From Chloroflexota bacterium (GTDB lineage: Bacteria > Chloroflexota > Dehalococcoidia > Lucifugimonadales > Lucifugimonadaceae): DNA of 34,365 bases. The notes beneath the pieces are model-generated. The model was not told the DNA's origin, did no database searches, and was given only the letters and a program-made list of their open reading frames with translations. Shown here piece by piece: positions 14,333 to 34,365 of the stretch. The first letter of the stretch is position 1. The number at the start of each line of letters is the position of its first letter. The position numbers and the translations under genes are program-made. The DNA lies in the NCBI GenBank assembly GCA_029262715.1, contig JAJCYX010000397.1, positions 1 through 34,365 of the forward strand. The letters run 5' to 3'.

Positions 14333-14387
14333 GTTTCCATCCCAAAACACATTCATTCGGCTTTGCTTGGGGTGAAATGCTCAATGC

Positions 14388-14663: not shown

Positions 14664-14678
14664 CTTCGGCGACAGCTT

Positions 14679-14990: not shown

Positions 14991-15220
14991 AGACGCTCAG
15001 AACCAAATTCAACGCAACCCCACAAGTGGCCTTGAGCGCGCGGAGCGGTACGCGCCGATCACGCACCGGATTGACCGTACCAATGAAGTTCCGAGGTTCC
15101 TCACTGTCACGCCAGAGGGCGTCCAGGTCGCGGCCTGAACTGGTCGCGATAAGTAAGAAGCGCGCAACCGCCCGTCGTCAGTCGCCAAACTATCTACTGG
15201 CGGTTGCGCCAGATCAGTGA
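14987..15220 (+). CDS. Possible small Arg-rich ORF (weak)
   Basis: ATGA overlap with the upstream stop suggests coupling. The composition is unusual and another frame (14740..15138) is also open. Confidence 0.2.
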   Translation: MKTLRTKFNATPQVALSARSGTRRSRTGLTVPMKFRGSSLSRQRASRSRPELVAISKKRATARRQSPNYLLAVAPDQ

Positions 15221-15893: not shown

Positions 15894-17530
15894 TGGCAGA
15901 GCCAACAAGCGTTGATGCTGCGCTCGACCAGTTCACGGTTGCGGCAGAGGGTCTGCCAGAAGTGCCGAAAACCACGGCGAACGGCGCTGGCTCCGGTCGG
16001 AACGATGAACTGGCACGCACCGCCGGACATCTTGCGCGGCAGGGCTTGACCAATGAGCAGATAAGGGCTGGCGTGCTGGAAAAGAACGCGCAGTTTAACG
16101 ACCCGCTGCTTGAGGATGAAGTCGAGCGCACAGTGCTCCGGTCGGCTGAGAAGTGGGCGCAGCCTGCTGAACGGTACACCGTGCCGGAGCATATCGAGGA
16201 CTCAGACATCGGCAACGCTATGGCGTACGCGCAGTACGTCGCCGGTCTACTCCTGTGGGATGGCGTCAATCACCAGTGGTGGTGGTGGCACGGCCACAAG
16301 TGGACCCCTGACACCGACCGGCGATATGAGCTGTACTTGAAACCCATCATCGACCGGTTGTTTCAGCAGGGCGCTTTGATGGAAGGCGACCGCCGTGACC
16401 GGCGCATGAAGTTCCTCTCCTCTCGGCTAAGGTCCCGGCAGGCACAGCTAGCCATGATCGAGGGAGCTAAGCCATACCTGCCGGTCTCACCTACTGAGTT
16501 CGACGCCAACCCGTACTCATTCGCATTCAGCAATGGCGTACTGGACCTGTTGAACGGTGAGTTCAAGCCGCCGGACGCGGCGAACATGAACAGCAAGGCG
16601 GCAGGTTACGACTATGACCCGGACGCTGACTGCCCGCGGTGGCTCGCGTTCCTTGACGAGATATTCCAAGGCGACGCAACGTTCATACGCGACCTTCAGC
16701 TAATCATGGGCGAGTCCCTGTCCGGCGATACAGGGAAGTCCCTGTTCATCATCTTCTGGGGTGAAGGCGCAAACGGCAAGTCAACTGTGCTCAAGGTGCA
16801 TGGCAGGCTGCTCGGCGACTATGCCGTCCACACGAAGTCGAGCGTGTTCGCCGCCCGTGACTCAGCGAACGTCAAGGGCTGGGATGTTCACCCGCTAGTG
16901 GGCGCGCGCCTTGTCACGGCGATTGAGGCAGACGCCACCAAGTACCTGAACGAATCCACGGTCAAGAACATGACCGGCGATGACCGGATGCGCGCCGAGA
17001 AGAAGTACGGGATGTCATTCGAGTTTGAGCCGACGTGGTTGCCGGTCATGGCGACGAACTCCAAGCCACGGACCCGAGGCGCAAATGAGGCTCTATGGCG
17101 TCGGCTGAGGCTACTTGAGTTCAACTACCAGATCCCTGAAGCCAGCCGGATGAAGGGCTACGCTGACCGCTACCTGTTGCCTGAACTGCCCGGAATCTTC
17201 AACTGGGCATGGCAGGGCTTCCGTTCAATCCAGGACGCGGGCGGAGTGGTCCAGTTCTCAGACCGGGTGACGGTTGCCACTGATCAGTACCGCCAGAGCC
17301 AGGACGTGCTCGGCGAGTGGCTGGACCAGCGCGCGGAAACAAACGCGGAAAGCCGCGTGCCGCTCAAGGATGCTTTCGCCAGCTACAGGGATTTCAGCGG
17401 CGACGCTGACTATGTGCTCGGCAAGCGCGCCTTCACCGAAGCGATGGAGGAACGGGGCTTCCGAACCGTCGTGGGGAAGGCAAAAGCACGGTTCGTGACA
17501 GGGTTGAGTCTGACGGAGGGTGTATTTTGA
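15890..17530 (+). CDS. Phage/plasmid primase P4-family C-terminal protein (PriCT-1 + D5_N + SF3 helicase)
   Basis: 546 aa. PriCT-like GRNDELARTAGHLARQGLTNEQI, D5_N-like middle region, Walker A in FIIFWGEGANGKST (GxxxNGKS/T, typical of P4/D5 SF3 helicases), then a Walker B and sensor region. Confidence 0.88.
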   Translation: MMAEPTSVDAALDQFTVAAEGLPEVPKTTANGAGSGRNDELARTAGHLARQGLTNEQIRAGVLEKNAQFNDPLLEDEVERTVLRSAEKWAQPAERYTVPEHIEDSDIGNAMAYAQYVAGLLLWDGVNHQWWWWHGHKWTPDTDRRYELYLKPIIDRLFQQGALMEGDRRDRRMKFLSSRLRSRQAQLAMIEGAKPYLPVSPTEFDANPYSFAFSNGVLDLLNGEFKPPDAANMNSKAAGYDYDPDADCPRWLAFLDEIFQGDATFIRDLQLIMGESLSGDTGKSLFIIFWGEGANGKSTVLKVHGRLLGDYAVHTKSSVFAARDSANVKGWDVHPLVGARLVTAIEADATKYLNESTVKNMTGDDRMRAEKKYGMSFEFEPTWLPVMATNSKPRTRGANEALWRRLRLLEFNYQIPEASRMKGYADRYLLPELPGIFNWAWQGFRSIQDAGGVVQFSDRVTVATDQYRQSQDVLGEWLDQRAETNAESRVPLKDAFASYRDFSGDADYVLGKRAFTEAMEERGFRTVVGKAKARFVTGLSLTEGVF

Positions 17531-17646
17531 GCGGCCTTTTTGAGTTCAAGGGTGTATTTCGGAACCAATACTCAAGAACTTTTCCCATGCGCACACGCGA
17601 AAAGAACTTCTTGGAATGTAGTTCCCAAAGTACACAAATACACCCT
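17518..17646. repeat. Repeated 11-mer AGGGTGTATTT (two direct, one inverted) just after the helicase gene
   Basis: GGGTGTATTT occurs at 17518-17527 and 17550-17559. The inverse AAATACACCCT occurs at 17636-17646. A 10/11 match (AAATACACCGT) directly follows the tRNA CCA end at 12461-12471. Confidence 0.6.
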
Positions 17647-18044
17647 GACTGGTGGACTGAAACACGCTCCAATCCTGACCGTGGCACTGGCCGCAACACA
17701 ACAATAGGTAGGCCGCAGTTATCTGTTCGGATGGCGAGAGCTTCCAACTTGGCCGACTCGCCAGGACAGGCCAAATTACCTGTTCGGAGCGAAGATGCTG
17801 ACTGGAAGCTGATTGTGTCCGTGATTTGGACTAATCCGAAAAATATGCAGAGATGGCCGCAGGGGTCTTCAAATCCGCCCATACCAAACTGCCGGCCATG
17901 CCGAACTGTTGGCGCAAGGCGGAGCCTCCGCGCTATGTGCTAGTAGCGAGGGGCAGGCCGGGACTGGCTGTGCTCCGGCCTGCCCACCGCCGGTGGCGAG
18001 CGCGTGACCGGTAAAAATCCGATTCTGTGGCGAGGTTGTAAGTC

Positions 18045-18572: not shown

Positions 18573-19240
18573 CCGGAACCGCGTCTCGAAGAGATCGACG
18601 AGCATGAAGTCCATCGACCAGCCTTCATTGGGACCGGTCGCCTCCAGCCGTTCAACGCGCCTCTTGCAACTGACGCGCCGCCGTGGTTTCTTTGGTCTCA
18701 TGGAGAGGCGTTCCTCACGATAGAGCCGGTAGACCCGCTTGTGGTTGATCTCCCAACCCTCGCGCCTTAGAAGGACGTGGATCCGACGTTAGCCGTAGCT
18801 GACCTTGGCATAAGCCAGGTCCCTGATCCGTAGCCTGAGCAAGGCCTGCTCATCAGCTCTGCTTCTGTACCTCTTGCTTGCCCTGCTGAAGTTGAGAAGA
18901 CGGCATGCACGCCGTTCGCTCACGTCGAAGCCGACCTGGAGGTGGTCACAGAGTTGTCTGTCCTGAGCAGGCCTCAGAGTTTTTTTCGGATGACGTCCTG
19001 CAACATCTCCTTGTCCAGGGAGCGATCAGCGACCAGCTGCTTGAGCTTCCTGTTCTCTTCCTCGAGCTAACGGAGACGTCTGAGCTCTGCGACTCCCATG
19101 CCGGCGAACTTCTTCTTCCAGCGGTAGAACGTCACGCCCGTGACGCCCATCTTCCGGCACACTTCCTGAACCGGCATGCCGCTCTCTGCCTGCCGCAGGG
19201 CGAAGGCGATCTGCTCCTGCGTATACCTCGTTCTCTTCAC
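18573..19240 (-). pseudogene. IS3-family transposase OrfAB, disrupted
   Basis: Manual translation from the GTG at 19240: MKRTRYTQEQIAFALRQAESGMPVQEVCRKMGVTGVTFYRWKKKFAGMGVAELRRLR-stop-LEEENRKLKQL..., with an in-frame TAG at 19067-19069. The -1 frame continues ...RACRLLNFSRASKRYRS...SYG-stop-RRIHVLLRREGWEINHKRVYRLYREE..., with TAA at 18789-18791. The rve core is missing. Confidence 0.8.
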
Positions 19241-19666: not shown

Positions 19667-20206
19667 CTATCGAATGGGCGCGATCACTCCGTTGGGCGGA
19701 ACATCGCCGGTGAGTTCGACTGATTCTGCATCTATGCTCGTGATTGATCTCCCGAGCGGAACATCACCGGTGAGTTCGACTGATTCTGCATCTATGCTCG
19801 TGATTGATCTCCCGAGCGGAACATCACCAGTGAGTTCGACTGATTCTGCATCTATGCTCGTGATTGATCTCTCGAGCGGAACATCGCCGGTGAGTTCGAC
19901 TGATTCTGCATCTATGCTCGTCATTGATCTCCCGAGCGGAACATCGCCGGTGAGTTCGACTGATTCTGCATCTATGCTCGTGATCGTTACCTTCGGAGCA
20001 ACCCCGGAGGCGAACCCCACCGCCCCGACGATTACACCAGCCATGACGACGAAAACTACTGCCACCGCCGCTATCGCCAGCGTGTGCCTTTTTAGGAATC
20101 GAACTGGTGCCGACGTGCGATTGCCCTGTGATTGATACGCTGACGCTTCTCTTTCCTCTGCCTGGGCCTGCATTTCAATAAGTCCGATGGAAGACAATTT
20201 GGCCAC
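19667..20206 (-). CDS. Membrane-anchored protein made of five tandem 20-aa repeats (possibly a truncated gene)
   Basis: 179 aa: a charged N-terminus, one TM helix (TLAIAAVAVVFVVMAGVIVGAVGF), then five copies of TSIDAESVELTGDVP(L/P)xRS. The ORF ends 12 codons after the last repeat. Confidence 0.55.
   Translation of the reverse strand: MAKLSSIGLIEMQAQAEEREASAYQSQGNRTSAPVRFLKRHTLAIAAVAVVFVVMAGVIVGAVGFASGVAPKVTITSIDAESVELTGDVPLGRSMTSIDAESVELTGDVPLERSITSIDAESVELTGDVPLGRSITSIDAESVELTGDVPLGRSITSIDAESVELTGDVPPNGVIAPIR
19696..19986. repeat. 60-bp tandem repeat, about 5 near-identical copies
   Basis: The period is exactly 60 nt (each copy aligns with one 60-nt sequence line, 19681-19980). There are only 1-2 substitutions per copy (e.g. 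ACATCGCCGG / ACATCACCGG / ACATCACCAG). Confidence 0.95.
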
Positions 20207-20474: not shown

Positions 20475-20564
20475 ATGAAAGTTAGTTTCTTCCGCGCATT
20501 TGGAAACTGGGTGAGCAACGTGCTGAAGCATCAGCCTTCACCTCATGTGGGGCCGCCGTATTAA
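20475..20564 (+). CDS. Short ORF (29 aa), outlying member of the GNW...HQP.P..PPY-stop family
   Basis: MKVSFFRAFGNWVSNVLKHQPSPHVGPPY-TAA aligns codon for codon with the tails at 31212-31286 and 32083-32157. A GGAAGG purine run lies just upstream of the ATG. Confidence 0.45.
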   Translation: MKVSFFRAFGNWVSNVLKHQPSPHVGPPY

Positions 20565-22134: not shown

Positions 22135-25100
22135 TCATGCCTTCAATATCTCCCGCTTTGCCAGCACACGCTCAAGCAGCGGCTTCATACCCAGTTCGGT
22201 GGCGATGGCGATGGCTTCGTCTTGCAGTTCGGTGGCATTTTCACGGTCGCCGGGGGCGTTTCGGTCAAGAAGAAAATCAGAGTAGTCGGCACAGGTCCAG
22301 GCCATTTCGGGACGATAACCTGAAGTTTCTCCGAATTCAATACTTTTTTCGTAATAATCGGCGGCTTCATCGGGATTGCCCATTAGGGCATTCGCAAGTC
22401 CAGCAACTCGGTAGTAGCCACTACCTAGACGATTCCAAAATGTATCAGAATGTTTTTCAATACTGTGAAAATGTCTAGATGCGGAAGCAGCGTCGTTTAA
22501 ACTCACAGCTAGATGACAAGCCTGCAATTTTCTTAGCGTTTTTACCTCACGCTCCATATTGACTGACGTTATACTGTGTTCCACCATGCGCAAAGTTTCC
22601 TCCATGTCATAGTCGATTCCATGTGTTCGATAAATGTGGGCAAACGTGCCGGCAAACATCATGTGGAAATTAAACGTATGTTTTAGTTTCTCCGCATTTT
22701 CTTTTAGTGACTCTATATCGCCGAGTTCATTGGCTACAGCTATTTGAACCACCAACGCCCTGGGTTCGTCCGGGCTAACTGCTAAAGCTGCACGTATGTC
22801 ATCGGTCGCTCCATGCCAGTCACCAAGATTTGATCTTAGTTGTGCCCGGTTGCTATAAGCCCACGCAAGAGCATGATTGCTTCTAAGACGGTTGGCGGCT
22901 TGAACTCCGTTGTCACAAACGGATTCTGCTTCCAGAGGTAAACCTATCGAAGTAAGATGTAGCGCAGTGTAGTCATAAGCGGCCAGTTTTAGCGATAAAT
23001 CCTCACTTCGGTCTGCTAGTTGTATGACTTCCGAGAGTATTTTGTTTGTTTCGTCAACTGAAAACTCCATGTGTTGCGCTAATAGTTGGGCCGTCAGTGC
23101 ATTTAACAATTGGTCATTATCATTATCAGCTCTGGCAATTGCGACCGCCTCGGCCGCTGCTGTGATATCAATTATTCCTAATTCCATCGATTTGAATAAT
23201 GCTAAATTTGATAGCAAACGACCTCTAAACGATGAGTTCTTCGGAGTGATAGCAATTGCTTGTTGGTACATATCTGACATACCCTCTGTTCCGTGGAAAT
23301 GAGGAAATGGAGCGATTGCGACTTTGACGGCGTCTTCAATATCGCCGTTTTGAAGAAACCAATAAAAAGCATCTTGGTACAACTTTGCCGATGCAGATAA
23401 ATCCGTTCGTTTCGCTGTCGCAGCCTTGGCCCTTGCCAACAATGCGGTCATCTTTGCCCACATTTCGTCTTTTATGTTGTGCCTCTCAAGTGCCGACGTT
23501 AAATAACCAAAGGCTCTGTCATAAGCGTGAGAGTCGAGTGCCTGTTGACCCGCGGCTACGTGATACTCGATCAACTTCTTCGTCCCCAGCACTGTCTCAG
23601 CTTCGGCGAAATGCTCAGCCAGCTCAGCGGCGTGATCTTCGGCATCATCCCCGTAATAGTCTTCAAGAGCCTCGGCGATCCGGGCGTGCATTCTGACCGC
23701 ACGGGTATGTGAAAGCTCCTGTGTCAGGGTGTCCTGCATCTGAGCGTGGGTGAACTGGTAGAAGCCGACATCTTCTTTCAACTCCTCGATGATGCGGGCA
23801 GAAAGAGCTTCATCCATCGCATCGAGAAGTTGACTATCCGTCGTGTCCTCGGCCAGTATCTTCAGTACGTCGAACTGGAACTGCCTCCCGATTACAGCGG
23901 CTATCGTCAGCACCTCGTTGCACCGCTCGGAGAGACGGTCAAGCCTTCGGCCAATGACTTCTCGCACACTCTCGGGTATCCGTATCTCCCACGAGGTTGT
24001 TCCACCCTTCGATGACTGGCCGGAGGTGATGTCCCCCTCCTGTATGAGCAGGCGCACAGTCTCGGTAACGAACAGTGGGTTACCTTCGGTCTGCTGAAAG
24101 ACGGTCTCCACGAGCGCAGGGGGTGGGGTGATACCTGCCGCTATCTCGATAAAGCGCCGCACATCGTGCTTTTGCAGTCCCCTGAGGACTACCCGCTCGA
24201 ACAGCCGCTCCCTAGAAAGGTCACCAAGGGTGACAGAAAGCGGATGTCTCCTGTTCAGCTCTATGTCCCGGTAGTTGCCAATGATGAGGATTCGGGAGTT
24301 GGCAAGCTCCCTTGCCACGAACTCCAGCAGCACAAGTGACGGCTTGTCCGCCCAGTGCAGGTCTTCCAGCATCAGCACGAGCGGCGTGGAAGATGCTGTG
24401 TTCTTTAGAAATGTAGCTATGGAGTCGAAGAGTCTGAACCTTGCTGACTCAGGGTCTTCTATCATCACCGCCTGCGGTATGTCAGGGAGCTTCTCCTTCA
24501 CGTCTGAAACCACCTCGGCGATGACAGAGGCGGTGGAGCCCATCTGGTTACGAAGCGACCGAGGCTCTGTTGCCGCTACATGAGAACGGATAGCCTGCAA
24601 CCACGGCCAGTACGGAGGCGCTCCTCCCGACTCGTAACTGCGACCCCAGAGCACTTGTGCTCCGCGCATCCCGGCATACGTCGCAAGCTCCTGTGCGGTG
24701 CGGGTTTTGCCGATGCCCGGCTCTCCGACCAGCGTCAGAAGCCTGCCTTTGCCCGAGAGAACCTCCTCGAAGACAGCCTTCAGCTGGTCCATCTCCCTCT
24801 GCCTGCCGACAAAGACTCCGCCCGCCATGGAATCGAGGGAGCCTTTGTTCTCCGCCGATTCTTCCACAGCAGACAGGTCTACCGACTGCAAAACAGTGAG
24901 CACTTCATCCGCGGACTCCGGTCTCTCTGCCGGGTCCTTGGCCAGCAGCCGCATGATCAGGGATTCGAGCGTCTTCGGCATCGACTGGTTGTGCCAACTA
25001 GGAGCTACAGGAGGGGTGTTGACGTGCTGGGAGATGATGGCGATGTCGTCGTCGCCCATGAACGGAGGCCTGCCTGTGCTCATCTCGTAGAGCATAGCGC

Positions 25101-25968
25101 CCAGCGAGTAGAGGTCAGCTCTTGGTGTGACCTCTCCACCTGTCGCCTGTTCAGGTGGCATGTAGTTGACGGTGCCAACCATCACCTTCTCGACGGTGAG
25201 GCGTGAGCGGTCTGTAGCTACGGCCTCACCGAAGTCCCCGATCTTTGCCGCTCCGTCCTCGTCCATCCAGATGTTGCTGGGCTTGAGGTCGCGGTGGACG
25301 ATGCCCTTGCCGTGGGCGAATGAGAGTCCCTGCGCGGTCTGGGTGGCAATGCGGATTGCATCTGCAAGATCGAGCGGGCCATCTGCGTCTTCGATCAGGT
25401 CTTCCACATCTCCTCCGCCCATGAGCGGCTGCACCATGAATGGCTGTGGCGTTCCGTCTTCTGCGGGCTCTTCGCCGAGGTCGTAGATCGGCATGATGCA
25501 GGGATGGGTTCCCATCCTGCCCATAGCCTGCGCCTCTCTCCTGACCCGCTCTCTTCCCGTCTCGTCGAGTCCGTCTGTCTTGATGAGCGCAAACGCCACG
25601 TCGCGGTCCAGCGTGTTGTCATGTGCGAGATACACCTTCTTCTTGCCACCTTCACCGAGGAGCTTGCTAACGGTGTAACGGCCTGAGGCGAAGGAGGTGG
25701 GTTGGTCGGTTGGAACGCTGGGATCGCTGGGATCGCTGGCTACGATATCTGGCAAGTCAGTTTCTATGGGCTGCCCAGCCGACCCAGTCCAGGCCGACAT
25801 GGCTTTGTCGGCCATCAACTTGAATGAACGAGCGTCTTCGTTCTCAGAATCAAGTGCTAAAGCGCCGGCCACAAACTCCAGCACCCTGTTCCAGTCACCT
25901 GATCTGGTAGCTTCCTCCGCCTGATCGAGGAGAGTGTCTATCTGTCGCTGCACACGCTCACTTGGCAT
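22135..25968 (-). CDS. Ser/Thr protein kinase - AAA (AAA_16/STAND-like) ATPase - TPR protein, paralog A
   Basis: Kinase: GEGGKKKVY, VAFALIK, HRDLKPSN, DFG, MPPE. NTPase: Walker A GEPGIGKT and Walker B LVLMLEDLHWAD. Long helical/TPR C-terminus. The start is set at MPSERVQR..., homologous to the paralog B start; the ORF-track start at 26010 adds 14 aa with no counterpart in B. Confidence 0.9.
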   Translation of the reverse strand: MPSERVQRQIDTLLDQAEEATRSGDWNRVLEFVAGALALDSENEDARSFKLMADKAMSAWTGSAGQPIETDLPDIVASDPSDPSVPTDQPTSFASGRYTVSKLLGEGGKKKVYLAHDNTLDRDVAFALIKTDGLDETGRERVRREAQAMGRMGTHPCIMPIYDLGEEPAEDGTPQPFMVQPLMGGGDVEDLIEDADGPLDLADAIRIATQTAQGLSFAHGKGIVHRDLKPSNIWMDEDGAAKIGDFGEAVATDRSRLTVEKVMVGTVNYMPPEQATGGEVTPRADLYSLGAMLYEMSTGRPPFMGDDDIAIISQHVNTPPVAPSWHNQSMPKTLESLIMRLLAKDPAERPESADEVLTVLQSVDLSAVEESAENKGSLDSMAGGVFVGRQREMDQLKAVFEEVLSGKGRLLTLVGEPGIGKTRTAQELATYAGMRGAQVLWGRSYESGGAPPYWPWLQAIRSHVAATEPRSLRNQMGSTASVIAEVVSDVKEKLPDIPQAVMIEDPESARFRLFDSIATFLKNTASSTPLVLMLEDLHWADKPSLVLLEFVARELANSRILIIGNYRDIELNRRHPLSVTLGDLSRERLFERVVLRGLQKHDVRRFIEIAAGITPPPALVETVFQQTEGNPLFVTETVRLLIQEGDITSGQSSKGGTTSWEIRIPESVREVIGRRLDRLSERCNEVLTIAAVIGRQFQFDVLKILAEDTTDSQLLDAMDEALSARIIEELKEDVGFYQFTHAQMQDTLTQELSHTRAVRMHARIAEALEDYYGDDAEDHAAELAEHFAEAETVLGTKKLIEYHVAAGQQALDSHAYDRAFGYLTSALERHNIKDEMWAKMTALLARAKAATAKRTDLSASAKLYQDAFYWFLQNGDIEDAVKVAIAPFPHFHGTEGMSDMYQQAIAITPKNSSFRGRLLSNLALFKSMELGIIDITAAAEAVAIARADNDNDQLLNALTAQLLAQHMEFSVDETNKILSEVIQLADRSEDLSLKLAAYDYTALHLTSIGLPLEAESVCDNGVQAANRLRSNHALAWAYSNRAQLRSNLGDWHGATDDIRAALAVSPDEPRALVVQIAVANELGDIESLKENAEKLKHTFNFHMMFAGTFAHIYRTHGIDYDMEETLRMVEHSITSVNMEREVKTLRKLQACHLAVSLNDAASASRHFHSIEKHSDTFWNRLGSGYYRVAGLANALMGNPDEAADYYEKSIEFGETSGYRPEMAWTCADYSDFLLDRNAPGDRENATELQDEAIAIATELGMKPLLERVLAKREILKA

Positions 25969-26030
25969 AGTCGCGGCATGATACGCGAAGTCAGGTGGTG
26001 TGCGTGCCATCTATCGGCACATGAGAATAT

Positions 26031-26096
26031 GTCGTCACACTCGTCATCCTGTCATTGCCAACTTGAACTCAGAATGACGACATGACGACTGTGACA
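26031..26096. repeat. Palindromic ~60-65 bp intergenic repeat, copy 1
   Basis: GTCGTCACACTCGTCATCCTGTCATTGCCAACTTGAACTCAGAATGACGACATGACGACTGTGAC. Nested inverted arms are TCGTCAT/ATGACGA and GTCATT/AATGAC. Confidence 0.7.
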
Positions 26097-26182
26097 AGTT
26101 GTTTCAACTCCTGTATGTGTCGGACAATTCAGGTCGGCCCAGTTCAAATCGTCGCCGCACTAGGACGCTCCAGTGTAAACAG

Positions 26183-26242
26183 GTCGTCACACTCGTCACC
26201 TTGTCACTCCCAATCTCAGTTCAGAATGACGACATGACGACT
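26183..26242. repeat. Palindromic ~60-65 bp intergenic repeat, copy 2
   Basis: GTCGTCACACTCGTCACCTTGTCACTCCCAATCTCAGTTCAGAATGACGACATGACGACTT. It is a direct copy of 26031-26096 with a divergent centre. Confidence 0.7.
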
Positions 26243-26314: not shown

Positions 26315-26938
26315 CTACTGGGACATTGCCCGACCGTCCCACTCATCTAGAGGGTTTACAAGCGCTTTCCAGTTGGTAATAAGCTCACGGTTTTCCAAAC
26401 CGCCTCGGCCTGTTATCCAGAGAAGAGTCTCCCATCTCGGTGTATCGAGTGGTGACCACGGAAAGAGACGACGCAATATCCGATCGCACAAGTCCTCGGG
26501 AGGCGAGATCGAAACACTCAGACCCCGTAAAACATCATGCCCGTGGAGTAATACTTCGTTACATCCCATCGCTAAATAACCCTCTGGATCGGGAGAGCCC
26601 CAGGGATGCCATCCTCTAGCATCGGTGGGCGAACCATTGAAAACACATGCCAGAAGCTCTGCATTGAGTGAGAGAAGTCGAAGTGACTCGTTCACTTCAA
26701 GCTGGACAACAGAAAAGAAGGACGGCTTCGATTTGATCTGATCCCGATTTGCAAGGATTGTTGCATACCAAGCGAAGCCGTATACCAAATGGCCTAATGT
26801 GTGCCGCCTAGTCCAATCCATACCTGTGGGTTTGCCGTCCCAATCTTCAACTGTCTGACCTGACAAGGCATTAACGACATGTTCGGTCGATAACCTAATG
26901 TCGCTGACGGAAACGGGCTCACGGATTTCAGCGTTCAT
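26315..26938 (-). CDS. DinB / MDMPI_N-like (mycothiol maleylpyruvate isomerase N-terminal domain family) protein
   Basis: 207 aa. N-terminal ...DWDGKPTGMDWTRRHTLGHLV... resembles the DinB_2/MDMPI_N helix with its metal-binding His. ...WETLLWITGRGG sits near the C-terminus. The start overlaps the kinase B stop (ATGA at 26935-26938). Confidence 0.5.
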   Translation of the reverse strand: MNAEIREPVSVSDIRLSTEHVVNALSGQTVEDWDGKPTGMDWTRRHTLGHLVYGFAWYATILANRDQIKSKPSFFSVVQLEVNESLRLLSLNAELLACVFNGSPTDARGWHPWGSPDPEGYLAMGCNEVLLHGHDVLRGLSVSISPPEDLCDRILRRLFPWSPLDTPRWETLLWITGRGGLENRELITNWKALVNPLDEWDGRAMSQ

Positions 26939-29900
26939 GCCTTCAATATCTCCCGCTTAGCTAGCACTCGCTCCAGCAATGGCTTCATGCCCAGTTCTGT
27001 AGCGATGGCGATGGCTTCGTCCTGCAACTCGATGGCCTTTTCACGGTCACCGGGGGCGCTGCGGTCAAGGAGCATTTCGGAGTAGTCGGAGCAGGTTCGC
27101 CCCTGTTCCGGGCCAAAACCGCATGCTCGGCAGTGCGTTAGCGCAGCTTCAAAATGATCGTAAGCCTTTGAATAATCACCAAGTGCACTTGCGAACTCTC
27201 CCAGGATTCGCTCGTCGTGTTCGTAAAGGCCGGGTACGCCAGAAACGAGAAATCCCGGTGTCGTCAATCGCTCGAGCTCTGAATATTGTTCCTGCACTAC
27301 TTTCTTGTCGTCTGCCTTTATGGCAAGTCGCCCGAGAGCAATATGCATCACTTTCCTGACGCTCGGAGGCGTGCTCGTCCGTTCTCTAAGCGCAGTCTTA
27401 AGATCGCTCATCCAACCCTGACTGTCGGGCAATTCGTTGACTAGAGACCTTAAGTCCCACAACGTCGGCCCCACCCAGAACCAGTAACGTAATGATGAGT
27501 CTTGGGTACGGTACAGATAGTCTCTGGCAGACTCAAAATCGCCTGTCGAGTATTCGATCAAAGCCCTCGATGATAGATTTCGAGCGTGATTGGGTTGCGC
27601 CTCGATTGCCTTGTCGCTATACCGCCGAGCCGCGTCCCACTGACCGGTTTCCATTTCTATCAGCTGGCTGTAAAAACCGGCATCAGAAATCCAGAATCGA
27701 GAATTCAGTTTGTCGGCCATGGACCTCGCCTGGCTTGCATGTTGGCGGGATTCGGAAAGCTGGCCCATGCCCATGAGCATGCCCGCAGCGTATTGGTGAG
27801 CTCGGATAGTCGCTCCGATATTGTTCGTGTCTGACGCCAGCTCAGCTGCGCGTAATGACTGTTCGTAGCGAGCATCATTATTCAGGTGATACCCGTTAAT
27901 GCTGGCGGAGACCACGAGTGTTCTGAGTTCAAGGTCACTGTCTGATTCGCGAGCGGCGATAGCCAAAGCGGTGTCCAAGACTTCGAGGCCTTGTTCTCCG
28001 TTGCTGCGCTCCTCAAACAAAAACTCGCCGTATTTCGTCAGCAATCTGCCTGCTTCCTGCGAATTCTCCTGAACCAGTTTCATAGCTTCTTCGAGCAGAG
28101 AAACTACACCCGTCAGTCCGGTGAAATTAGGAATGTCGGTCAAGGCTACGTACAGTGCTTTTTGGGTTTGTCCTGCATCCATGTAACTATCGAAAGCTTG
28201 ACGTAACGAAGCGACTGCACTCGACATCGATTCGCGTTCGGATGTGGCGATCTCACAGCGAGCAAGACCATGAAGTGCTTCAGCCTTCGTGACGGCATCC
28301 AATGTTTCTCCGGCCGCTTTTATCACACGCAAGAATTGCCGCTGAGCGCTCTCATATGCGAATCCGCTGAGCGCTGCATGTCCAGCATTCAATCCGTATC
28401 TGACCAACCCTTCTGGCCCCAACACCGTTTCGGCCTCTGCAAAGTGCTCAACTAGTTCAGCGGCATTCTCGTCGGCTGCATCTCCGTAGTATTCTTCGAG
28501 GGCTTCGGAGATGCGGGCGTGGAGCCTAACTCGGCGTGTAAGTGATAGTTCCTCTGTCAGCGTCTCCTGCATTGAGGCGTGTGTAAATTGGTAGAGACCA
28601 ACCTCGTCCAACTCCTCGATAACCCTGGCCGAAAAAGCGTCGTCGATGGCATCGAGCATCTGGCCGTCTGTCGTGTCCTCCATCAGCATTTTCAGCACAT
28701 CGAACCGGAACTGGCGGCCAATGACGGCAGCAATCGTCAGCACCTCATTACAACGCTCAGACAGCCGGTCGAGACGCCTGCCGATGACCTCTCGCACACC
28801 CTCAGGTATTCGTATCTCCCATGATGTTGTCCCGCCCTCCGTCTTCCGACCGGACGCAATGTCTCCCTCCTGTATCAGGAGCCGCACGGTCTCGGTGACG
28901 AACAGCGGATTGCCCTCGGTCTGCTGAAACACGGTGTCGACAAGCGCAGGTGGGGGAGTGATGCCCGCAGCAATCTCGATAAACCGTGCAACGTCGTGCT
29001 TCTGCAGCCCTCTGAGCAGGATGCGGTCGAACAGCCTCTCCCTGGTCAGGTCTCCGAGCGTCACAGAAAGCGGGTGCCTGCGATTGAGCTCTATGTCACG
29101 ATAGTTGCCGACAATCAGGATCTTCGAGTTGGCAAGCTCCCTGGCAACGAACTCCAGCAGCATCAAGCTCGGCTTGTCCGCCCAGTGCAGGTCTTCCAGC
29201 ATGAGCACGAGCGGAGTGGAAGAAGATGCCTGCTTCAGGAAGGTGGCTATCGCGTCGAAGAGCCTGAAGCGCGCTGACTCCGGGTCGTCGATCGGCATCG
29301 GCTCAGGCAGACCAGGAAGCTTCTCCTTCACGTCTGTCACCACCTCTGCGATGACAGAAGCGGTGGATCCCATGTCCCCTCTCAGGGACTCAGCGGAGGC
29401 CGAGGAGACGTGGCTGCGCATCGCCTGCACCCAGGGCCAGTACGGCGGCGCGCCTCCAGACTCGTAGCTGCGGCCCCACAGCACCTGCGCCCCGCGCATC
29501 GCTGCATACGTGGCGAGCTCCTGCGCGGTACGAGTTTTGCCGATGCCGGGCTCACCAACCAGGGTGACCATGCGTCCGTGTCCGGACAGCACCTCCTCAA
29601 AGGCTGCCTTTAGCTGGTCCATCTCTTTGTGGCGGCCGACGAAGACGCCGCCTGCCATCGAGTCGAGACTCGTCTCTCTTCCCTCGGACTGTTCAACTGC
29701 AGACAGATCGATACCACTTAGAGCCGAAAGCACTTCATCCGCCGACTCCGGCCTTTCAGCGGGGTCCTTGGCGAGAAGCCGCAGTATCAGAGAGTCGAGC
29801 GTCTTCGGAATAGATGAGTTGTGCCATGATGGCGCGACAGGCGGGGTATTGATGTGCTGAGAGATGATTCCTATTTCATCATCAGACATGAACGGGACGC

Positions 29901-30759
29901 GGCCTGTGCACATCTCGTAGAGCGTCGCTCCCAGCGAGTAGAGGTCTGCCATCGGAGTCACTTCTCCGCCAGTAGCCTGCTCCGGTGGCATGTAGTTGAC
30001 CGTGCCGACCATCACCTTCTCTACCGTGAGGCGTGAGCGGTCTATCGCAACCGCTAGTCCGAAGTCACCGATCTTTGCTGCACCGTCTTCATCAAGCCAG
30101 ACGTTGCCTGGCTTCAGGTCCCTGTGGACGATGCCCTTGCCGTGGGCAAAGCCAAGGCCCTGTGCCGTCTGGGTTGCGATGCGGATAGCGTCTTCAAGAG
30201 GTAGTGGCCCGTCCGCGTTTTCGATGAGTTCTTCAACATCACCGCCACCCATGAGAGGCTGAACCATGAACGGCTGCCCGGCTTCGTCACCGAGGTCGTA
30301 GATTGGCATGATGCAGGGGTGTGTTCCCATGCGACCCATGGCCTGAGCCTCACGCTTGACCCGCTCACGTGAGGTTTCGTCGAGTCCCTCTGTCTTGATT
30401 AGCGCGAAGGCAACGTCTCTATCGAGCGTGTTGTCGTGGGCTAGGTAGACGCGCTTCTTGCCGCCTTCACCGAGAAACTTTGAGACGGTGTAGCGACCTG
30501 AGGCAAAGGACTTGGGGGTGACCGATGTATCAGCCGCATGATCGGTCTTCGCTGGAGGGTTCGGATCACCACCTGATTCAGCAGAGCCAAGCCAGCGGTT
30601 GGCGGCAGTTAGGTACGCTGTGGCCTCCGCGTTGTCGGTATCGACATCGAGCACGCTCTCAGCAAGATTCCTGACAGATCCCCAGTCACGATCAGCTTCA
30701 GCCTGATCAATCTCATCAAGCAGCCGGTCTATCCGTCTCTGCACACGCTCACTTGGCAT
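26935..30759 (-). CDS. Ser/Thr protein kinase - AAA (AAA_16/STAND-like) ATPase - TPR protein, paralog B
   Basis: 1274 aa with the same motifs as paralog A (HRDLKPGN, DFGLAV, GEPGIGKT, LVLMLEDLHWAD). The last ~40 aa are almost identical to those of A (...ELQDEAIAIATELGMKPLLERVLAKREILKA). Confidence 0.9.
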   Translation of the reverse strand: MPSERVQRRIDRLLDEIDQAEADRDWGSVRNLAESVLDVDTDNAEATAYLTAANRWLGSAESGGDPNPPAKTDHAADTSVTPKSFASGRYTVSKFLGEGGKKRVYLAHDNTLDRDVAFALIKTEGLDETSRERVKREAQAMGRMGTHPCIMPIYDLGDEAGQPFMVQPLMGGGDVEELIENADGPLPLEDAIRIATQTAQGLGFAHGKGIVHRDLKPGNVWLDEDGAAKIGDFGLAVAIDRSRLTVEKVMVGTVNYMPPEQATGGEVTPMADLYSLGATLYEMCTGRVPFMSDDEIGIISQHINTPPVAPSWHNSSIPKTLDSLILRLLAKDPAERPESADEVLSALSGIDLSAVEQSEGRETSLDSMAGGVFVGRHKEMDQLKAAFEEVLSGHGRMVTLVGEPGIGKTRTAQELATYAAMRGAQVLWGRSYESGGAPPYWPWVQAMRSHVSSASAESLRGDMGSTASVIAEVVTDVKEKLPGLPEPMPIDDPESARFRLFDAIATFLKQASSSTPLVLMLEDLHWADKPSLMLLEFVARELANSKILIVGNYRDIELNRRHPLSVTLGDLTRERLFDRILLRGLQKHDVARFIEIAAGITPPPALVDTVFQQTEGNPLFVTETVRLLIQEGDIASGRKTEGGTTSWEIRIPEGVREVIGRRLDRLSERCNEVLTIAAVIGRQFRFDVLKMLMEDTTDGQMLDAIDDAFSARVIEELDEVGLYQFTHASMQETLTEELSLTRRVRLHARISEALEEYYGDAADENAAELVEHFAEAETVLGPEGLVRYGLNAGHAALSGFAYESAQRQFLRVIKAAGETLDAVTKAEALHGLARCEIATSERESMSSAVASLRQAFDSYMDAGQTQKALYVALTDIPNFTGLTGVVSLLEEAMKLVQENSQEAGRLLTKYGEFLFEERSNGEQGLEVLDTALAIAARESDSDLELRTLVVSASINGYHLNNDARYEQSLRAAELASDTNNIGATIRAHQYAAGMLMGMGQLSESRQHASQARSMADKLNSRFWISDAGFYSQLIEMETGQWDAARRYSDKAIEAQPNHARNLSSRALIEYSTGDFESARDYLYRTQDSSLRYWFWVGPTLWDLRSLVNELPDSQGWMSDLKTALRERTSTPPSVRKVMHIALGRLAIKADDKKVVQEQYSELERLTTPGFLVSGVPGLYEHDERILGEFASALGDYSKAYDHFEAALTHCRACGFGPEQGRTCSDYSEMLLDRSAPGDREKAIELQDEAIAIATELGMKPLLERVLAKREILKA

Positions 30760-30962: not shown

Positions 30963-31286
30963 ATGGAGAAGATGTGGCGGTGTGCGGTGTGTGCAGGTGA
31001 TAGCCGCTCCTACTCGAATGGAGTGCAGTGGGAGTTCGCGCCGGTGAAGCACTCGGAACGCCGCGTCCTGGCTCACCTGCTGGAGTTCCACGACATCTCG
31101 CCCCTTGACCTGAAGTCGGCCAGACTGGTCGAGAGCGACTACTCAGGTGGATTGAGCATCGGAAGCCGCGTACTAGCAATGTGGTCTCGCTCAGACGCGA
31201 CGGGAGACGATATGCACCGCTCCGGCAACTGGCTTAGCGATGTGGTGCGGCATCAACCGAAGCCGCAGGGTAGACCGCCGTATTGA
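30963..31286 (+). CDS. Small Cys/His-containing protein with conserved proline-rich C-terminal tail (may be two in-frame units)
   Basis: 107 aa. N-terminal WRCAVC...H......HLLEFH (possible zinc-binding), with a paralog at the window end. The last 24 codons (31212-31286, MHRSGNWLSDVVRHQPKPQGRPPY) have their own GGGAG RBS 5 nt upstream and match the short-ORF family. Confidence 0.5.
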   Translation: MEKMWRCAVCAGDSRSYSNGVQWEFAPVKHSERRVLAHLLEFHDISPLDLKSARLVESDYSGGLSIGSRVLAMWSRSDATGDDMHRSGNWLSDVVRHQPKPQGRPPY

Positions 31287-31538
31287 CCTGCGCCCCGATG
31301 CCGAACGATTTGCTCGTACACCGCCGCCGTAGGATGAACGGGCATGACCAGTCCGAGTGAGTCGATGGCCGACGCCCTGACGACCGGGGCGGATGCAGGC
31401 GTTCGATGCCAACGAGTTCTCAGTCGTGACGACATCCCCGAACTCAACAGCATCAAAGCGCCCGCATCAGCCGCGAAAGGCTGGCCCTGATCTCCGCCCG
31501 GCGATTCTCAGCTGTGGCTGCCGGGTCAAAGGTCCTGA

Positions 31539-31907
31539 CTACTTTTTCGGGTTTCCAAGAAAGAAACGGTTCGGATTACACTCGTGGCCAGGCGATTCGC
31601 CCAGTATGTCCATCGCTTCCTGCGCGCTGACGCCCGCAAAGTTCTTTACGAGCACGAGGAACGTGCCGTATGACTGGGCTTGTGTCGGTTCTTCGGCTTC
31701 GATCAGGTCGTTCAAACCCGAGAACGAACAGATAGACGCCGCCCCGTCTCCGGTCCAGAAGCCATCAATGGGGGTGGTCCCACCTTCTGCGCCTCCCGGC
31801 CCGGGCGGTCCTTTCACCTCGCCAGCAGATGCCGTGGCTGATGTCACGTAACCGACAGCCAGCACCAGAGCAAGTGCGGCAAGCAGGGGAAGATAGATAC
31901 GCTTCAT
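31539..31907 (-). CDS. Small secreted protein (signal peptide), unknown family
   Basis: MKRIYLPLLAALALVLAVGYVTSATASA|GE is a Sec-type signal peptide with an AxA site. AGGAG RBS ~7 nt upstream. Two Cys in the mature part. Confidence 0.6.
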   Translation of the reverse strand: MKRIYLPLLAALALVLAVGYVTSATASAGEVKGPPGPGGAEGGTTPIDGFWTGDGAASICSFSGLNDLIEAEEPTQAQSYGTFLVLVKNFAGVSAQEAMDILGESPGHECNPNRFFLGNPKK

Positions 31908-32082
31908 GACTCTCTCCTATCGATATGACTTTGGTCATCGTGCCGGGAGCGAGCAGATTCTATGTCGCCGGTCCGGTATTGGGCAATGTATGAGGCTCTC
32001 GGCATTGACGTTGATAACTCCAGAATCTCTTTGCCCAGGATGGCCGCCAAGTAGACGTGTTCAACTTCCACTCTCTCTCACA

Positions 32083-32157
32083 ATGAACCCGGTCGGATAC
32101 TGGCTATGCGACGTTCCGAAGCACCAGCCGAAGCCGCAGGGTAGGCCGCCGTATTAG
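32083..32157 (+). CDS. Short ORF (24 aa) of the GxW...HQPKPQGRPPY-stop family
   Basis: MNPVGYWLCDVPKHQPKPQGRPPY-TAG has the same length and register as 31212-31286. Similarity to that copy starts at the ATG and is absent upstream. No obvious SD. Confidence 0.4.
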   Translation: MNPVGYWLCDVPKHQPKPQGRPPY

Positions 32158-32218
32158 TGGGCGGCAGGCACACGGAGCCGGTGCTGAGGGCGGTTGAAGT
32201 GGATACCTAATCTGCCAT

Positions 32219-32482
32219 ATGTGCAGGATGATGTTTCGGTTGTCACGAACTCATCAGAGCCAAGCACGACCCATAATCTCAAATATGCAGCAACACAACC
32301 GCACCGCCGGGGAGCATAGGTTCTCGACGGAACTTGAGTTTCTGGGTGAGACGCGTCAACTAAATGCTGAGTCCTTGAACAACCGCATTGAGGAGATGCG
32401 CGTGGCTTTGGATGATGCTGAGCGTTCTACACGCACTCTTCTGGCGTTAACACGATTGGCATTTCTCGAACTTGGTGAGTGA
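32219..32482 (+). CDS. Hypothetical helical protein (weak)
   Basis: 87-aa ORF, predicted helical (..NRIEEMRVALDDAERSTRTLLAL..). It ends 3 nt into the degenerate tail copy at 32479-32529, which lies in another frame. Confidence 0.3.
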   Translation: MCRMMFRLSRTHQSQARPIISNMQQHNRTAGEHRFSTELEFLGETRQLNAESLNNRIEEMRVALDDAERSTRTLLALTRLAFLELGE

Positions 32483-32529
32483 ACAGAAACCTGCCGATAA
32501 ACCAGCCGCAGGGCAGGCCACCGTACTAG
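32479..32529 (+). pseudogene. Degenerate copy of the short-ORF tail (..LPINQPQGRPPY-stop)
   Basis: CCG CAG GGC AGG CCA CCG TAC TAG keeps PQGRPPY-stop through three synonymous changes. One CCGAAG unit is missing, and only 16 codons are open (GTG at 32479). Confidence 0.45.
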
Positions 32530-32591
32530 ACGCGCAAGACCCGCCGCACAGCGCGACGGGCCTAACTACCAAGAATCATGAAGATTCGAGA

Positions 32592-33212
32592 TTACTTCTC
32601 GCCTTTTTCGACCTTCCACGTCGTTTCGGCATTACCCTTCTTGTTGCCCTCTGAGTCGTATTCCGTGTAGGTGACCTTGTACTCCTCAAAGTTGTTGGCG
32701 ATGGTCACCGTCGGCGGGCCTTCGGTGGCAGTACCGCTCACTTCCCAACTCGTGATCTGCACGTTCTTAAGTTCGTACTTGAGGTACGTTGCCCTAGAAC
32801 CTCCGTAATTAGCGGTCTGCTCGATTTCCAGTTTTGGAATAACTTCGCCCATGTTGAGTTTTTCGAGCAACTTCACGGTCGATTTTTCATATTCCATTGT
32901 TAGGCGCATGTCCTCGACGATGACGCTGCCTCTTCGTCGAGACTGGCCCGTTGCTCCACCGCCGGGCTTGTTTGATCCCCAATCAATCGAAAGTATGTCA
33001 ATCCACTTGTCGTGGTTTGCGTCTTGGGATTCGCCATCGATCCCATCGTACTTGGCGAAATAGTTCTCTCCGCTTAGTGATGGCTGTGGCACTTCATCTG
33101 ATTGTGTTCGGGGTGCTGCTTCAACTGACGAGTTAAACGCAGCGGTCAAACCTATAGTGCTGACGGCAACTAAAACCATTACACCAATGGCAATCCTGAG
33201 ATGCCTGGGCAT
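32592..33212 (-). CDS. Hcp (type VI secretion tube protein / PF05638-like) homolog with N-terminal Sec-type signal peptide
   Basis: YFAKYDGIDGESQDANHDKWIDILSIDWGSNKPG aligns with the Hcp N-terminus (MFIKIGDVKGESKD..H..EIDVLAWSWG). It continues through ...VEDMRLTMEYEKSTVKLLEKLNMGEVIPKLEIE... and ...NVQITSWEVSG.....TVTIANNFEEYKVTY. It is preceded by MPRHLRIAIGVMVLVAVSTIGLTAAFNSSVEA|AP. GAGGA RBS. Confidence 0.85.
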   Translation of the reverse strand: MPRHLRIAIGVMVLVAVSTIGLTAAFNSSVEAAPRTQSDEVPQPSLSGENYFAKYDGIDGESQDANHDKWIDILSIDWGSNKPGGGATGQSRRRGSVIVEDMRLTMEYEKSTVKLLEKLNMGEVIPKLEIEQTANYGGSRATYLKYELKNVQITSWEVSGTATEGPPTVTIANNFEEYKVTYTEYDSEGNKKGNAETTWKVEKGEK

Positions 33213-33328
33213 TTCCGTCCTCTTCGTAATTAGCCTGTTTCGTCATTGCATGCAGAGTAAGGGAAGACGTGGAGACTCACCGTTAAGAATCGGTGAATAG
33301 TAGTTTGAAAGAAGTGTGAAGTATTTAT

Positions 33329-33373
33329 TGAACTGCGAACCGTCGGCCGAAACCGCAGGGTAGGCCGCTGTAA
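33329..33373 (+). repeat. Degenerate remnant of the short-ORF tail (..PKPQGRPL-stop)
   Basis: CCG AAA CCG CAG GGT AGG CCG CTG TAA matches the family core. There is no start codon, and the upstream part (TTGAACTGCGAACCG) is out of frame relative to the WLCDV region. Confidence 0.5.
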
Positions 33374-33446
33374 TGAGACGCGAAAACCGCCCCGGTTAAA
33401 AACCGAGGCAGCTTAACAATCATCGACTAATAGGGCTATCCATCGA

Positions 33447-33773
33447 CTAACCTGGCCAGATTGGTGAGAAGTCGGGATTGCCACCTGGTCCTGCATTAGG
33501 ATTGCCGGGACCTTCAGGGTTCAATGCGTTGGCATTGGCATGAACGCCCGCCTGGTTGTTCCCTGGCAGCAATGACGTTCCGGCAGGAGGCCCGATATCC
33601 TGGACGCCGTTGTCACCGTTGTGGTCATCGGCGTTAATGACTCCATCACCGACGATTGGGCACAAAAATGCCGTATCCACACCGTTGTCTGCGTCAGCCG
33701 ACGCCATCACGGTACCGCCAAGCATAGCTGCTGCGAATGCGGCAGCGACAATAAGTACTCGTAACTTGACCAT
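33447..33773 (-). CDS. Small secreted Gly/Asn/Pro-rich protein (signal peptide), unknown family
   Basis: MVKLRVLIVAAAFAAAMLGGTVMASA|DA is a signal peptide. AAGAGGAG RBS 6 nt upstream. The mature part has low complexity (GPGNPNAGPGGNP). Confidence 0.55.
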   Translation of the reverse strand: MVKLRVLIVAAAFAAAMLGGTVMASADADNGVDTAFLCPIVGDGVINADDHNGDNGVQDIGPPAGTSLLPGNNQAGVHANANALNPEGPGNPNAGPGGNPDFSPIWPG

Positions 33774-33963
33774 GGGCTACTCCTCTTGGTTGACCGCTCC
33801 GGATTTCAGAACGGTGTTTGCAGCACCATAGGACCAAATTGTTACAAATCTCTTACATACCGCAGGTTGCCTTCGCAATGCAGATGTCGGCGGGCACGAA
33901 CGTGAGCGGTAAGTGAGGAACGCTGCGAACTGATGGTTCCTCACAGATTCATCACGCCAAACT

Positions 33964-34004
33964 CCCTTGTCTCTCCTTGTGTCTCCTTGTGTCTCCTTGT
34001 GTCT
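33964..34004. repeat. 10-bp tandem repeat GTCTCCTTGT (about 4 units)
   Basis: 33981-34000 holds two perfect units, flanked by 9/10 and 7/10 units plus a partial unit. On the minus strand it reads ACAAGGAGAC, repeated AAGGAG Shine-Dalgarno-like cores. Confidence 0.85.
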
Positions 34005-34149
34005 GATTATGTTGGATGGTTACAGGGATAAAAGAACTGGCTTAAAACCCAGTAACCTAAAAACCCTGGAAGTTGAGGACAAAAAAACCTCAACTAAAAG
34101 CTTCATCGGTGATTTACAACCACCAAACAAAGATGAAGTAAGAACAAGC

Positions 34150-34365
34150 ATGCGACTTTCAGTTGGGGGCTTTTCGCGTCCGCATGACATAGAGACCGCG
34201 GTCCTGCTTCATCTGCGCAACCATCCCTCTCATGCGAGGGATGCTGGTGTGCAGGCGGTATGTGGAAGTGATTCCCGCTCCTACTCGAACGGAGTGCAAT
34301 GGGAGTTCGCGCCAGTGAAGCACTCGGAACGCCGCGTTCTGGCTCACTTGCTGGAGTTCCACGAC
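34150..34365 (+). CDS. Paralog of the 30963..31286 small protein, partial (3' end off-window; start uncertain)
   Basis: 34276-34365 differs from 31005-31094 at 5 of 90 nt, all synonymous in this frame (SYSNGVQWEFAPVKHSERRVLAHLLEFHD). The frame is open back to the ATG at 34150 (GTG at 34249 is also possible). A 2-nt indel relative to copy 1 removes the CxxC. Confidence 0.4.
   Translation, partial: MRLSVGGFSRPHDIETAVLLHLRNHPSHARDAGVQAVCGSDSRSYSNGVQWEFAPVKHSERRVLAHLLEFHD

Follow-up and report, generated by a model that had tools for sequence, protein, structure and literature searches.

In Dehalococcoides, a member of the Chloroflexota, ssrA-specific islands stand in tandem, bounded by ssrA and by 20-bp direct repeats of its 3' end; a DsiB serine recombinase module occurs in sixteen of these islands, and some islands without an integration module were proposed to be cis-mobilizable (McMurdie et al. 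2011, PMC3146451). In the tycheposons of Prochlorococcus, repeated integration at one site pushes older elements inward and leaves behind partial target copies and degenerate remnants; these elements target tRNA genes, are defined by their integrases (937 integrase-carrying elements) and bring in small adaptive cargo (bioRxiv 10.1101/2020.12.28.424599). Here we describe a locus in a bacterium of the Chloroflexota (family Lucifugimonadaceae; assembly GCA_029262715.1, contig JAJCYX010000397.1, positions 1 to 34,365, i.e., a stretch of 34,365 nucleotides [nt] called the window below), in which the gene of a 107-amino-acid (aa) Cys/His protein, termed the anchor gene, is followed by DNA that can be read as several short modules in a row, each ended on its right by a copy of the DNA that encodes the C-terminal tail of this protein. 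We consider it probable, though by no means settled, that the extra tail copies c2, c3 and c4, and probably also c5, are boundary duplicates or recombination scars at the borders of single-gene modules and not themselves required genes.

Integron cassettes (attI/attC, IntI) likewise form arrays of short, mostly one-gene units of variable order, each ended by a site copy. Islands at the 3' end of a protein gene are represented by SGI1 in trmE and by mobilizable genomic islands (MGIs) in yicC, where the last codons are duplicated so that the gene stays intact, and where tandem arrays occur; such elements measure 15 to 50 kb, have their own integrase and possess repeats of 18 to 30 bp. The locus described here shares with the ssrA islands the phylum, the tandem stacking downstream of one gene and the delimitation by copies of the 3' end of that gene, and by analogy these tandem islands appear to be the closest described case. 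Yet the ssrA islands have a transfer-messenger RNA (tmRNA) target and are kilobases long, whereas the target here is the coding tail of a small protein, the modules comprise single genes in 0.37 to 0.87 kb, and no recombinase is linked to them. As in the tycheposons, partial copies of the target gene are strewn through the island; unlike in the tycheposons, the modules are without integrase and the repeated site is protein-coding. The short one-gene units closed by a site copy, in an order differing between genomes, recall an integron, but there is neither intI nor an attC-type hairpin, the modules have their own promoters and lie mostly antisense to the anchor gene, and the site is inside an open reading frame (ORF). 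Since intI and attC were both sought and not found, we do not regard the array as an integron. The overlap of the attachment site with the last codons of a gene is a feature of the SGI1/MGI type, from which the locus differs by its sub-kilobase units and a repeat of up to 75 bp; a yicC-targeting island, GI21, is mentioned in PMC8978831. What would be new relative to the known islands is the combination of a protein-coding site, a repeat of at most 75 bp, sub-kilobase single genes with promoters and the lack of any element with an integrase.

The window contains five copies of the tail unit, designated c1 to c5; L-numbers denote other contigs, and designations such as L004b or L009a the tail copies on them. 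The anchor gene and the five copies are as follows.

30963-31286, plus strand: anchor gene, encoding the 107-aa Cys/His protein; its last 24 codons are the repeated unit
31212-31286, plus strand: c1, translated tail of the anchor gene, MHRSGNWLSDVVRHQPKPQGRPPY-stop, recovered by repeat search, profile and translation
32083-32157, plus strand: c2, full-length stand-alone unit with an intact ORF and without a Shine-Dalgarno sequence, MNPVGYWLCDVPKHQPKPQGRPPY-stop
32490-32529, plus strand: c3, partial unit lacking the 5' half, with an in-frame 6-nt deletion and three third-position changes; 32479-32529 reads VNRNLPINQPQGRPPY-stop
33336-33376, plus strand: c4, partial unit lacking the 5' half and a start codon, with PP changed to PL (Pro to Leu), ending in PKPQGRPL-stop; 33329-33373 opens with a stop codon and continues as TANRRPKPQGRPL-stop
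20475-20564, plus strand: c5, most divergent full-length unit, an intact 29-codon ORF, MKVSFFRAFGNWVSNVLKHQPSPHVGPPY-stop

Three of these are full 75-nt units (31212-31286, 32083-32157, and 20490-20564) and two are partial (32490-32529 and 33336-33376). A repeat search of the window placed 31212-31284, 32083-32155, and 20490-20562 in one 73-nt family, one of three in all, the other two being formed by the last 26 to 37 nt of the full units together with 32504-32529 and 33336-33376. An nhmmer profile retrieved the full copies with E values of 1e-19 to 1e-23, c4 with 5e-6 and c3 with 2e-3, and nothing besides these five in the window at E < 1. A degenerate DNA pattern derived from the peptide matched just the three full copies, against an expectation of 0 from 100 shuffles. 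The repeats are real and far above chance. All tail copies share one orientation. The consensus residues of the 24-residue unit are G-x-W-x2-[DN]-V-x2-H-Q-P-x-P-x3-P-P-Y, with G5, W7, and V11 invariant and H14, P16, P23, and Y24 nearly so.

The preliminary description of this DNA had listed five copies, all of which are present with the translations it gave; the in-frame fusion of c1 to the Cys/His domain, the loss of 6 nt and of the N-terminal part from the third copy (c3), and the count of eight synonymous or stop-for-stop against four nonsynonymous codons between c1 and c2 from Gly5 onward were likewise reproduced. Over the whole unit, the latter comparison gives eight against seven differing codons. 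The similarity had been described as beginning exactly at the ATG, which does not hold throughout: in L008 the likeness extends about 8 nt further upstream, and the Met at the start of the unit (Met84 of the anchor protein) is Thr in L008 and Val in L011.

Behind the anchor gene, positions 31287 to 34365 can be divided into four modules.

31287-32157: module A, gene of a secreted 122-aa protein at 31539-31907 (minus strand) with a promoter-like site at 31986-31957; closes with c2
32158-32529: module B, 87-aa ORF at 32219-32482 (plus strand); closes with c3
32530-33376: module C, terminator hairpin, Hcp-family gene with signal peptide at 32592-33212 (minus strand) and its upstream region; closes with c4
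33377-34365: module D, gene of a secreted 108-aa protein at 33447-33773 (minus strand), followed by the start of a second Cys/His gene; the closing copy lies beyond the window

The evidence for relocation comes from module C. Window positions 32504-33372 align with positions 787-1657 of L004, a contig of the Chloroflexota metagenome-assembled genome (MAG) OFTM297, at 79 to 87% identity. The Hcp module is third in line in the window and first in OFTM297, where it lies directly behind the Cys/His gene, so that the order of modules differs between related genomes. On the right, the homology stops at the GTA of the tail copies c4 and L004b; on the left, it starts just past the stop codon of whichever tail copy precedes. 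Module C is thus bounded by tail copies in both genomes and, as far as this alignment goes, one module is shown to have relocated between two genomes with its breakpoints at tail copies. Within the window, c1 to c4 stand at module borders, i.e., the array is bounded by the 3' end of the anchor gene and by direct repeats of it. Unrelated contigs show the same arrangement, in which a partial tail copy comes after a gene or module (L004b at 1621-1662 and L009b at 929-962); in L009 the order is full unit, 171-aa membrane-protein ORF and partial unit (PKPQGRRLY-stop). In addition, the first 38 nt of module B (32163-32200) reappear in L009 straight after a further, very degenerate tail copy. Among the roles considered in the preliminary description, the third, namely the replaced 3' end of an insertion target gene, fits best and comes close to what the comparison of modules indicates.

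Among the cargo genes, that of module C matches Pfam T6SS_HCP with E = 1e-26, while modules A, B, and D gave no match in Pfam, PHROGs, or PADLOC, and BLASTP comparison of the 87-aa ORF, and of a 58-aa ORF in L001, with the Cys/His protein yielded nothing significant. Homologues of the Hcp gene (L012 to L014) and of the 122-aa gene (L015, 76% identical, with the gene and about 50 nt upstream in common) in other organisms have no tail repeat in their flanks and share with the window only the gene and 15 to 50 nt upstream. The repeat is therefore not part of the regulatory DNA of these genes, and a role as a regulatory element of the cargo was rejected. As side observations, the module C product, which belongs to the Hcp family (type VI secretion tube) and bears a signal peptide at its N terminus, is encoded on a contig showing no other type VI secretion genes; versions with a signal peptide and shorter ones are widespread, the relatives at E <= 1e-20 numbering 763. 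In module D, the 460-nt spacer between the 108-aa and the second Cys/His genes holds a short tandem repeat, CTCCTTGTGT(C), present three times at about 33966-34000.

Orthologues of the anchor gene were found in L001, L002, L004, and L007 with nt identities of 78 to 89%. Their homology extends from 10 to 50 nt upstream of the start codon to the stop codon and no further, and the DNA right after the stop codon is unlike in all five fused copies (window, L001, L002, L004, and L007). Comparison of these five tails gave pairwise differences, summed by codon position, of 10:14:51 for the 5' half and 11:14:43 for the 3' half (21:28:94 in total), and the differing codons were synonymous in 40 cases and nonsynonymous in 14. 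Given this third-position bias and the excess of synonymous changes, the tail is evidently translated and under purifying selection within the Cys/His protein. The proposal that selection at the peptide level shapes the unit is thereby borne out for the fused tails, and the unit is, by this comparative measure, a genuine selected C-terminus of a lineage-restricted 107-aa protein. The coding signature that had been noticed between the repeats can be traced to this selected tail. On the other hand, the separate ribosome-binding site GGGAG that had been assigned to c1 consists of the Gly-Asp codons and reads GGGGA in L002 and GGGCA in L007; hence, no ribosome-binding site is conserved there. The Cys/His protein had no match in Pfam, PHROG, PADLOC, or a PDB sequence search, and its AlphaFold2 model is unreliable, with a mean predicted local distance difference test (pLDDT) value of 42. 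The second Cys/His gene, which begins at about 34249 and runs off the end of the window, is 91% identical to positions 30984-31094, as detected by the repeat search.

A different picture emerged for the nine unfused copies, namely, c2 to c5 and the five on other contigs listed below; a 45-aa ORF in L008, in which the tail is joined to a different N-terminal part, was counted apart.

L001b: unfused copy with a +1 frameshift
L009a: unfused copy with the stop codon lost and the changes H14L and P18L
L004b: unfused partial copy with the 5' half and start codon missing and the stop codon lost
L009b: unfused partial copy with the 5' half and start codon missing and PP changed to RL
L009z: unfused, heavily degenerate copy

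Seven of the nine are broken as ORFs, c2 and c5 being intact; the DNA of the 3' core is nonetheless kept. The only start candidate of c3 is a GTG overlapping the stop codon of the preceding 87-aa ORF. The preliminary description had suggested free small peptides, or leaders that arrest translation, as a possible role and had itself named disrupted frames in additional copies as an observation that would speak against its reading; with frameshifts, lost stops, missing starts, or degeneration in these seven, a free peptide family is largely unsupported, as in a small-peptide family frame, start, and stop would be kept across copies. Neither linked modification or export genes nor a same-strand downstream gene, as expected for such a family, accompany the units. 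Beside the units lie genes for secreted proteins in convergent orientation, for STAND kinases, and for a DinB-like protein (c5 lies 269 nt from the start of a divergent 179-aa repeat-protein gene at 19667-20206, minus strand). Most units have a convergent gene downstream, which could not be under the control of a leader peptide, and a leader role is not supported for most copies.

How c2 could look like a coding sequence is explained by its relation to the fused tails. By codon position it differs from them by 29:20:28 in the 5' half, where there is no bias, and by 3:5:20 in the 3' half. The 3' half shows four synonymous changes from c1 (one of them stop-for-stop), and three of the four also occur as alleles in fused tails. 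As these third-position alleles segregate among the fused tails, the synonymous pattern of c2 appears to be inherited. The five full-length stand-alone units (c2, c5, L008, L009a, and L001b) share V4, L12, and K13 and differ among themselves by 42:26:64.

Taken together, these results are consistent with the following scheme, of which the circular intermediate and the agent of recombination are the parts that we infer. The coding DNA of the tail, above all its last 26 to 37 bp (...GCCGAAGCCGCAGGGTAGGCCGCCGTA), would double as a junction for stacking small modules in tandem, each with its own promoter, a terminator, and a single gene, usually encoding a secreted protein on the other strand. A module would exit as a circle through recombination between the two flanking tail copies and enter by the reverse, Campbell-type event at any tail. 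On entry, a circular module bearing a full or partial tail copy would recombine with the resident tail such that a complete translated tail is restored on the side of the gene, and the module-borne copy, full or 5'-truncated, would land at the far side of the module. Repeated entry could build the array, exchange between two copies could free a module, and the coding look of the unfused copies would be inherited from the fused tails. Candidate agents are RecA-type exchange on 26 to 75 bp of homology or a recombinase acting in trans or encoded elsewhere. Stacking at a tail junction would explain why the copies share an orientation, why no part other than the 3' end is retained, why module C has clean edges, and why internal copies have decayed. 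In a bolder version, which we hold to be quite improbable, the Chloroflexota would possess a new type of cassette platform, with about 75 bp of proline-rich-tail DNA serving as attachment site for promoter-bearing single-gene modules, without integron integrase or folded attC, by means of an unrecognized recombinase, conceivably the putative zinc-binding Cys/His protein or a factor recruited by it.

With respect to structure and recombinases, folding of the repeat DNA (c1, c2, and c5 on both strands, c3 and c4 on the plus strand) gave no shared stem and z-scores between -1.55 and +0.41, which did not exceed the folding of shuffled sequence, and at gathering thresholds Rfam identified the tRNA-Arg alone in the window and no family match for the repeat. 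This agrees with the earlier impression that no convincing hairpin is present. A structured RNA is ruled out by the fold z-scores together with the Rfam result, and an attC-like site by the z-scores. The array locus lies within an island carrying a tRNA-Arg-adjacent integrase and a primase, a setting that fits the stacking of modules. This integrase, at 12586-13611, is the only one in the window and adjoins the tRNA-Arg 18 kb upstream of the array. The surrounding region, 12385-17943, resembles an integrative element: tRNA-Arg(tct) is followed directly by the tyrosine integrase, and behind it come genes of a primase-polymerase (15204-15893) and of a D5_N/DUF5906 helicase (15890-17530). The 3' end of the tRNA has no further copy in the window that could represent attR.

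Several observations weigh against module stacking at the tail. Dyad symmetry, as found in the classical core sites of tyrosine or serine recombinases, is lacking in the conserved core, where GCCGC-N7-GCCGC forms a direct repeat. No recombinase was detected in any module or beside any array (window, L001, L004, L008, and L009, with Pfam scans around the window array); in accreting islands, some elements have a cognate integrase, and none did in the contigs covered. The cross-genome comparison concerns just one module in two genomes, and all data are metagenome assemblies of one narrow lineage. Finally, the synonymous share among stand-alone units is 38%, compared with a neutral expectation of about 16% and with 74% for the fused tails, the ORF is intact in three of the five full-length units that stand alone, and the 45-aa ORF of L008 has a good Shine-Dalgarno sequence (GGAGGAG) and a terminator. 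A weak or past constraint at the peptide level on the full-length stand-alone units is therefore possible, judging from these comparisons.

The last three points would be expected if the 24-residue unit were itself selected, either alone (c2 and c5) or as a portable C-terminal module attached to varied N-terminal parts, namely the Cys/His domain or, in L008, an acidic head of 20 aa; it might then serve, for instance, in binding, in degradation, or as a ribosome-directed peptide. Such a function would also fit the maintenance of frame and stop position in c2, c5, and the L008 ORF at 63 to 79% nt identity and the residue conservation described above. It is at odds with the two broken full-length stand-alone units, the lack of a start codon in all four partial units, the missing ribosome-binding site at c2, the mostly convergent neighbors without modification or export genes, and the rarity of the tail in protein databases (see below), and the leftover synonymous signal may date from the fused period. 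We therefore judge a selected peptide module to be quite improbable, and a micropeptide role of the stand-alone units to be possible but unlikely. A structured-site cassette system of the integron or another type, with single-stranded folded sites and a dedicated integrase, would explain short one-gene modules separated by a repeated 26- to 75-bp element in one orientation; given that the array has no IntI-like gene beside it, that the only integrase adjoins a tRNA at a distance of 18 kb, that the repeats do not fold (z-scores near 0), and that the modules have their own promoters and terminators and mostly genes facing the anchor gene, we regard it as very improbable.

Decay of paralogues without any junction function deserves more weight, although we consider it unlikely as well. 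Here, the Cys/His gene and a divergent partner would have been duplicated in tandem, after which the gene bodies were deleted or overwritten, leaving 3' stubs that were reshuffled by ordinary homologous or illegitimate recombination. Duplication is attested by the two Cys/His genes in the window (at 30963 and about 34249), by two in OFTM297 and by two kinase paralogues. The 58-aa ORF ahead of the frameshifted L001b includes an in-frame, collinear 12-nt LEFH stretch of the Cys/His gene and thus suggests a rotted paralogue; the stand-alone copies hold the ancestral-looking states V4 and K13, which are also found in the distant homologue of L011; and the missing recombinase and dyad symmetry also speak for such a history. 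However, random decay should leave random gene pieces, while all of the at least nine remnants are 3' ends and five of these at least nine consist of just the last 26 to 40 nt. Moreover, the DNA upstream of c2 to c5 yielded neither 5' nor internal pieces of the Cys/His gene, and the edges of module C are clean at tail copies in two genomes. It is mainly this bias toward the 3' end and these edges that make us prefer boundary duplicates generated by module stacking.

The family is tiny, being found in 1 of 185,579 species-representative genomes and on a few short contigs. Among 5.8 billion clustered proteins, only three relatives of the Cys/His protein were present. When 1.84 billion representative proteins were searched with a profile built from just the tail, four true carriers and three low-complexity false matches were returned, and three carriers were gained beyond the whole-protein relatives; a portable C-terminal tag, another suggestion of the preliminary description, is therefore not widespread. 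In 185,579 species, each represented by one genome, the DNA pattern located the unit only in OFTM297, on two contigs. Over all scans with this pattern (species representatives, Joint Genome Institute [JGI] metagenomes, and viral contigs), there was besides OFTM297 one chance match in Bacteroides (L003 and L006), and the JGI metagenomes and viral contigs contained no real match to the degenerate pattern.

Further features were recorded in the window and related contigs. The genes at 22135-26010 (minus strand, 1,291 aa) and 26935-30759 (minus strand, 1,274 aa) are STAND-type paralogues composed of Ser/Thr kinase, AAA_16, and TPR domains; they show 76 to 82% nt identity, are 4,830 nt apart and enclose a DinB/MDMPI-like gene. 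Their kinase domain matches the PADLOC PD-T4-6 models, and a third orthologue exists in OFTM297. A direct repeat of 65 nt (...GTCGTCACACTCGTCA...GAATGACGACATGACGACT) occupies 26026-26090 and 26178-26242, immediately upstream of the first kinase gene; in the MAG it is kept downstream of the kinase gene (L001 11600-11697). A motif of the form GTGGGTACTAT...(about 30 nt)...GTACCC(C) at L001 15575-15631 and at L008 410-460 and 1286-1342 sits on the promoter side beside tail-bearing ORFs and kinase genes; the window lacks it in the corresponding part. The minus-strand ORF at 19667-20206 contains, at 19674-20044, five tandem 60-nt repeats of 88 to 100% identity plus a degenerate fifth copy; they correspond to 20-aa units (...SIDAESVELTGDVPLGRSIT...) of the product, which is membrane-anchored and 179 aa long. 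A palindromic repeat of about 30 nt, GTCATTCTGAACTTGATTCAGAATCTC, at window positions 8018-8047, 9208-9235, and 9252-9279 and at L001 20216-20246, is common to OFTM297 and resembles a repetitive extragenic palindromic (REP) element or a miniature inverted-repeat transposable element (MITE); a second repeat family, TGTCATCCCGACCATCGCGGAGGGATCTTACCGTA, occurs at 3783-3817, 4097-4131, and 8116-8148. By visual inspection, the 57-aa ORF translated from 19067-19240 (minus strand) is like the N-terminal helix-turn-helix of an IS3-family transposase and is an apparent fragment, and a direct repeat in L011, CATCACAGATTCCTGTTAT at 36-60 and 1049-1073, encloses a pair of genes, that of the distant Cys/His-like protein and one for a lipoprotein convergent to it, and may be another module border.

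The weight of the finding is limited by the tiny family, the single cross-genome comparison of a module and the missing recombinase. For the scanning of genomes, a caution follows: a clean synonymous signature between repeats may be the legacy of a parent gene and is no proof that each copy is a gene. If module stacking at the tail is correct, tandem accretion at a 3' end would occur on the scale of single-gene modules with their own promoter and without a recombinase, and the attachment site would be a protein-coding tail that is also bound by selection on the peptide. It would provide this uncultivated Chloroflexota lineage with one route to shuffle its small repertoire of secreted proteins.

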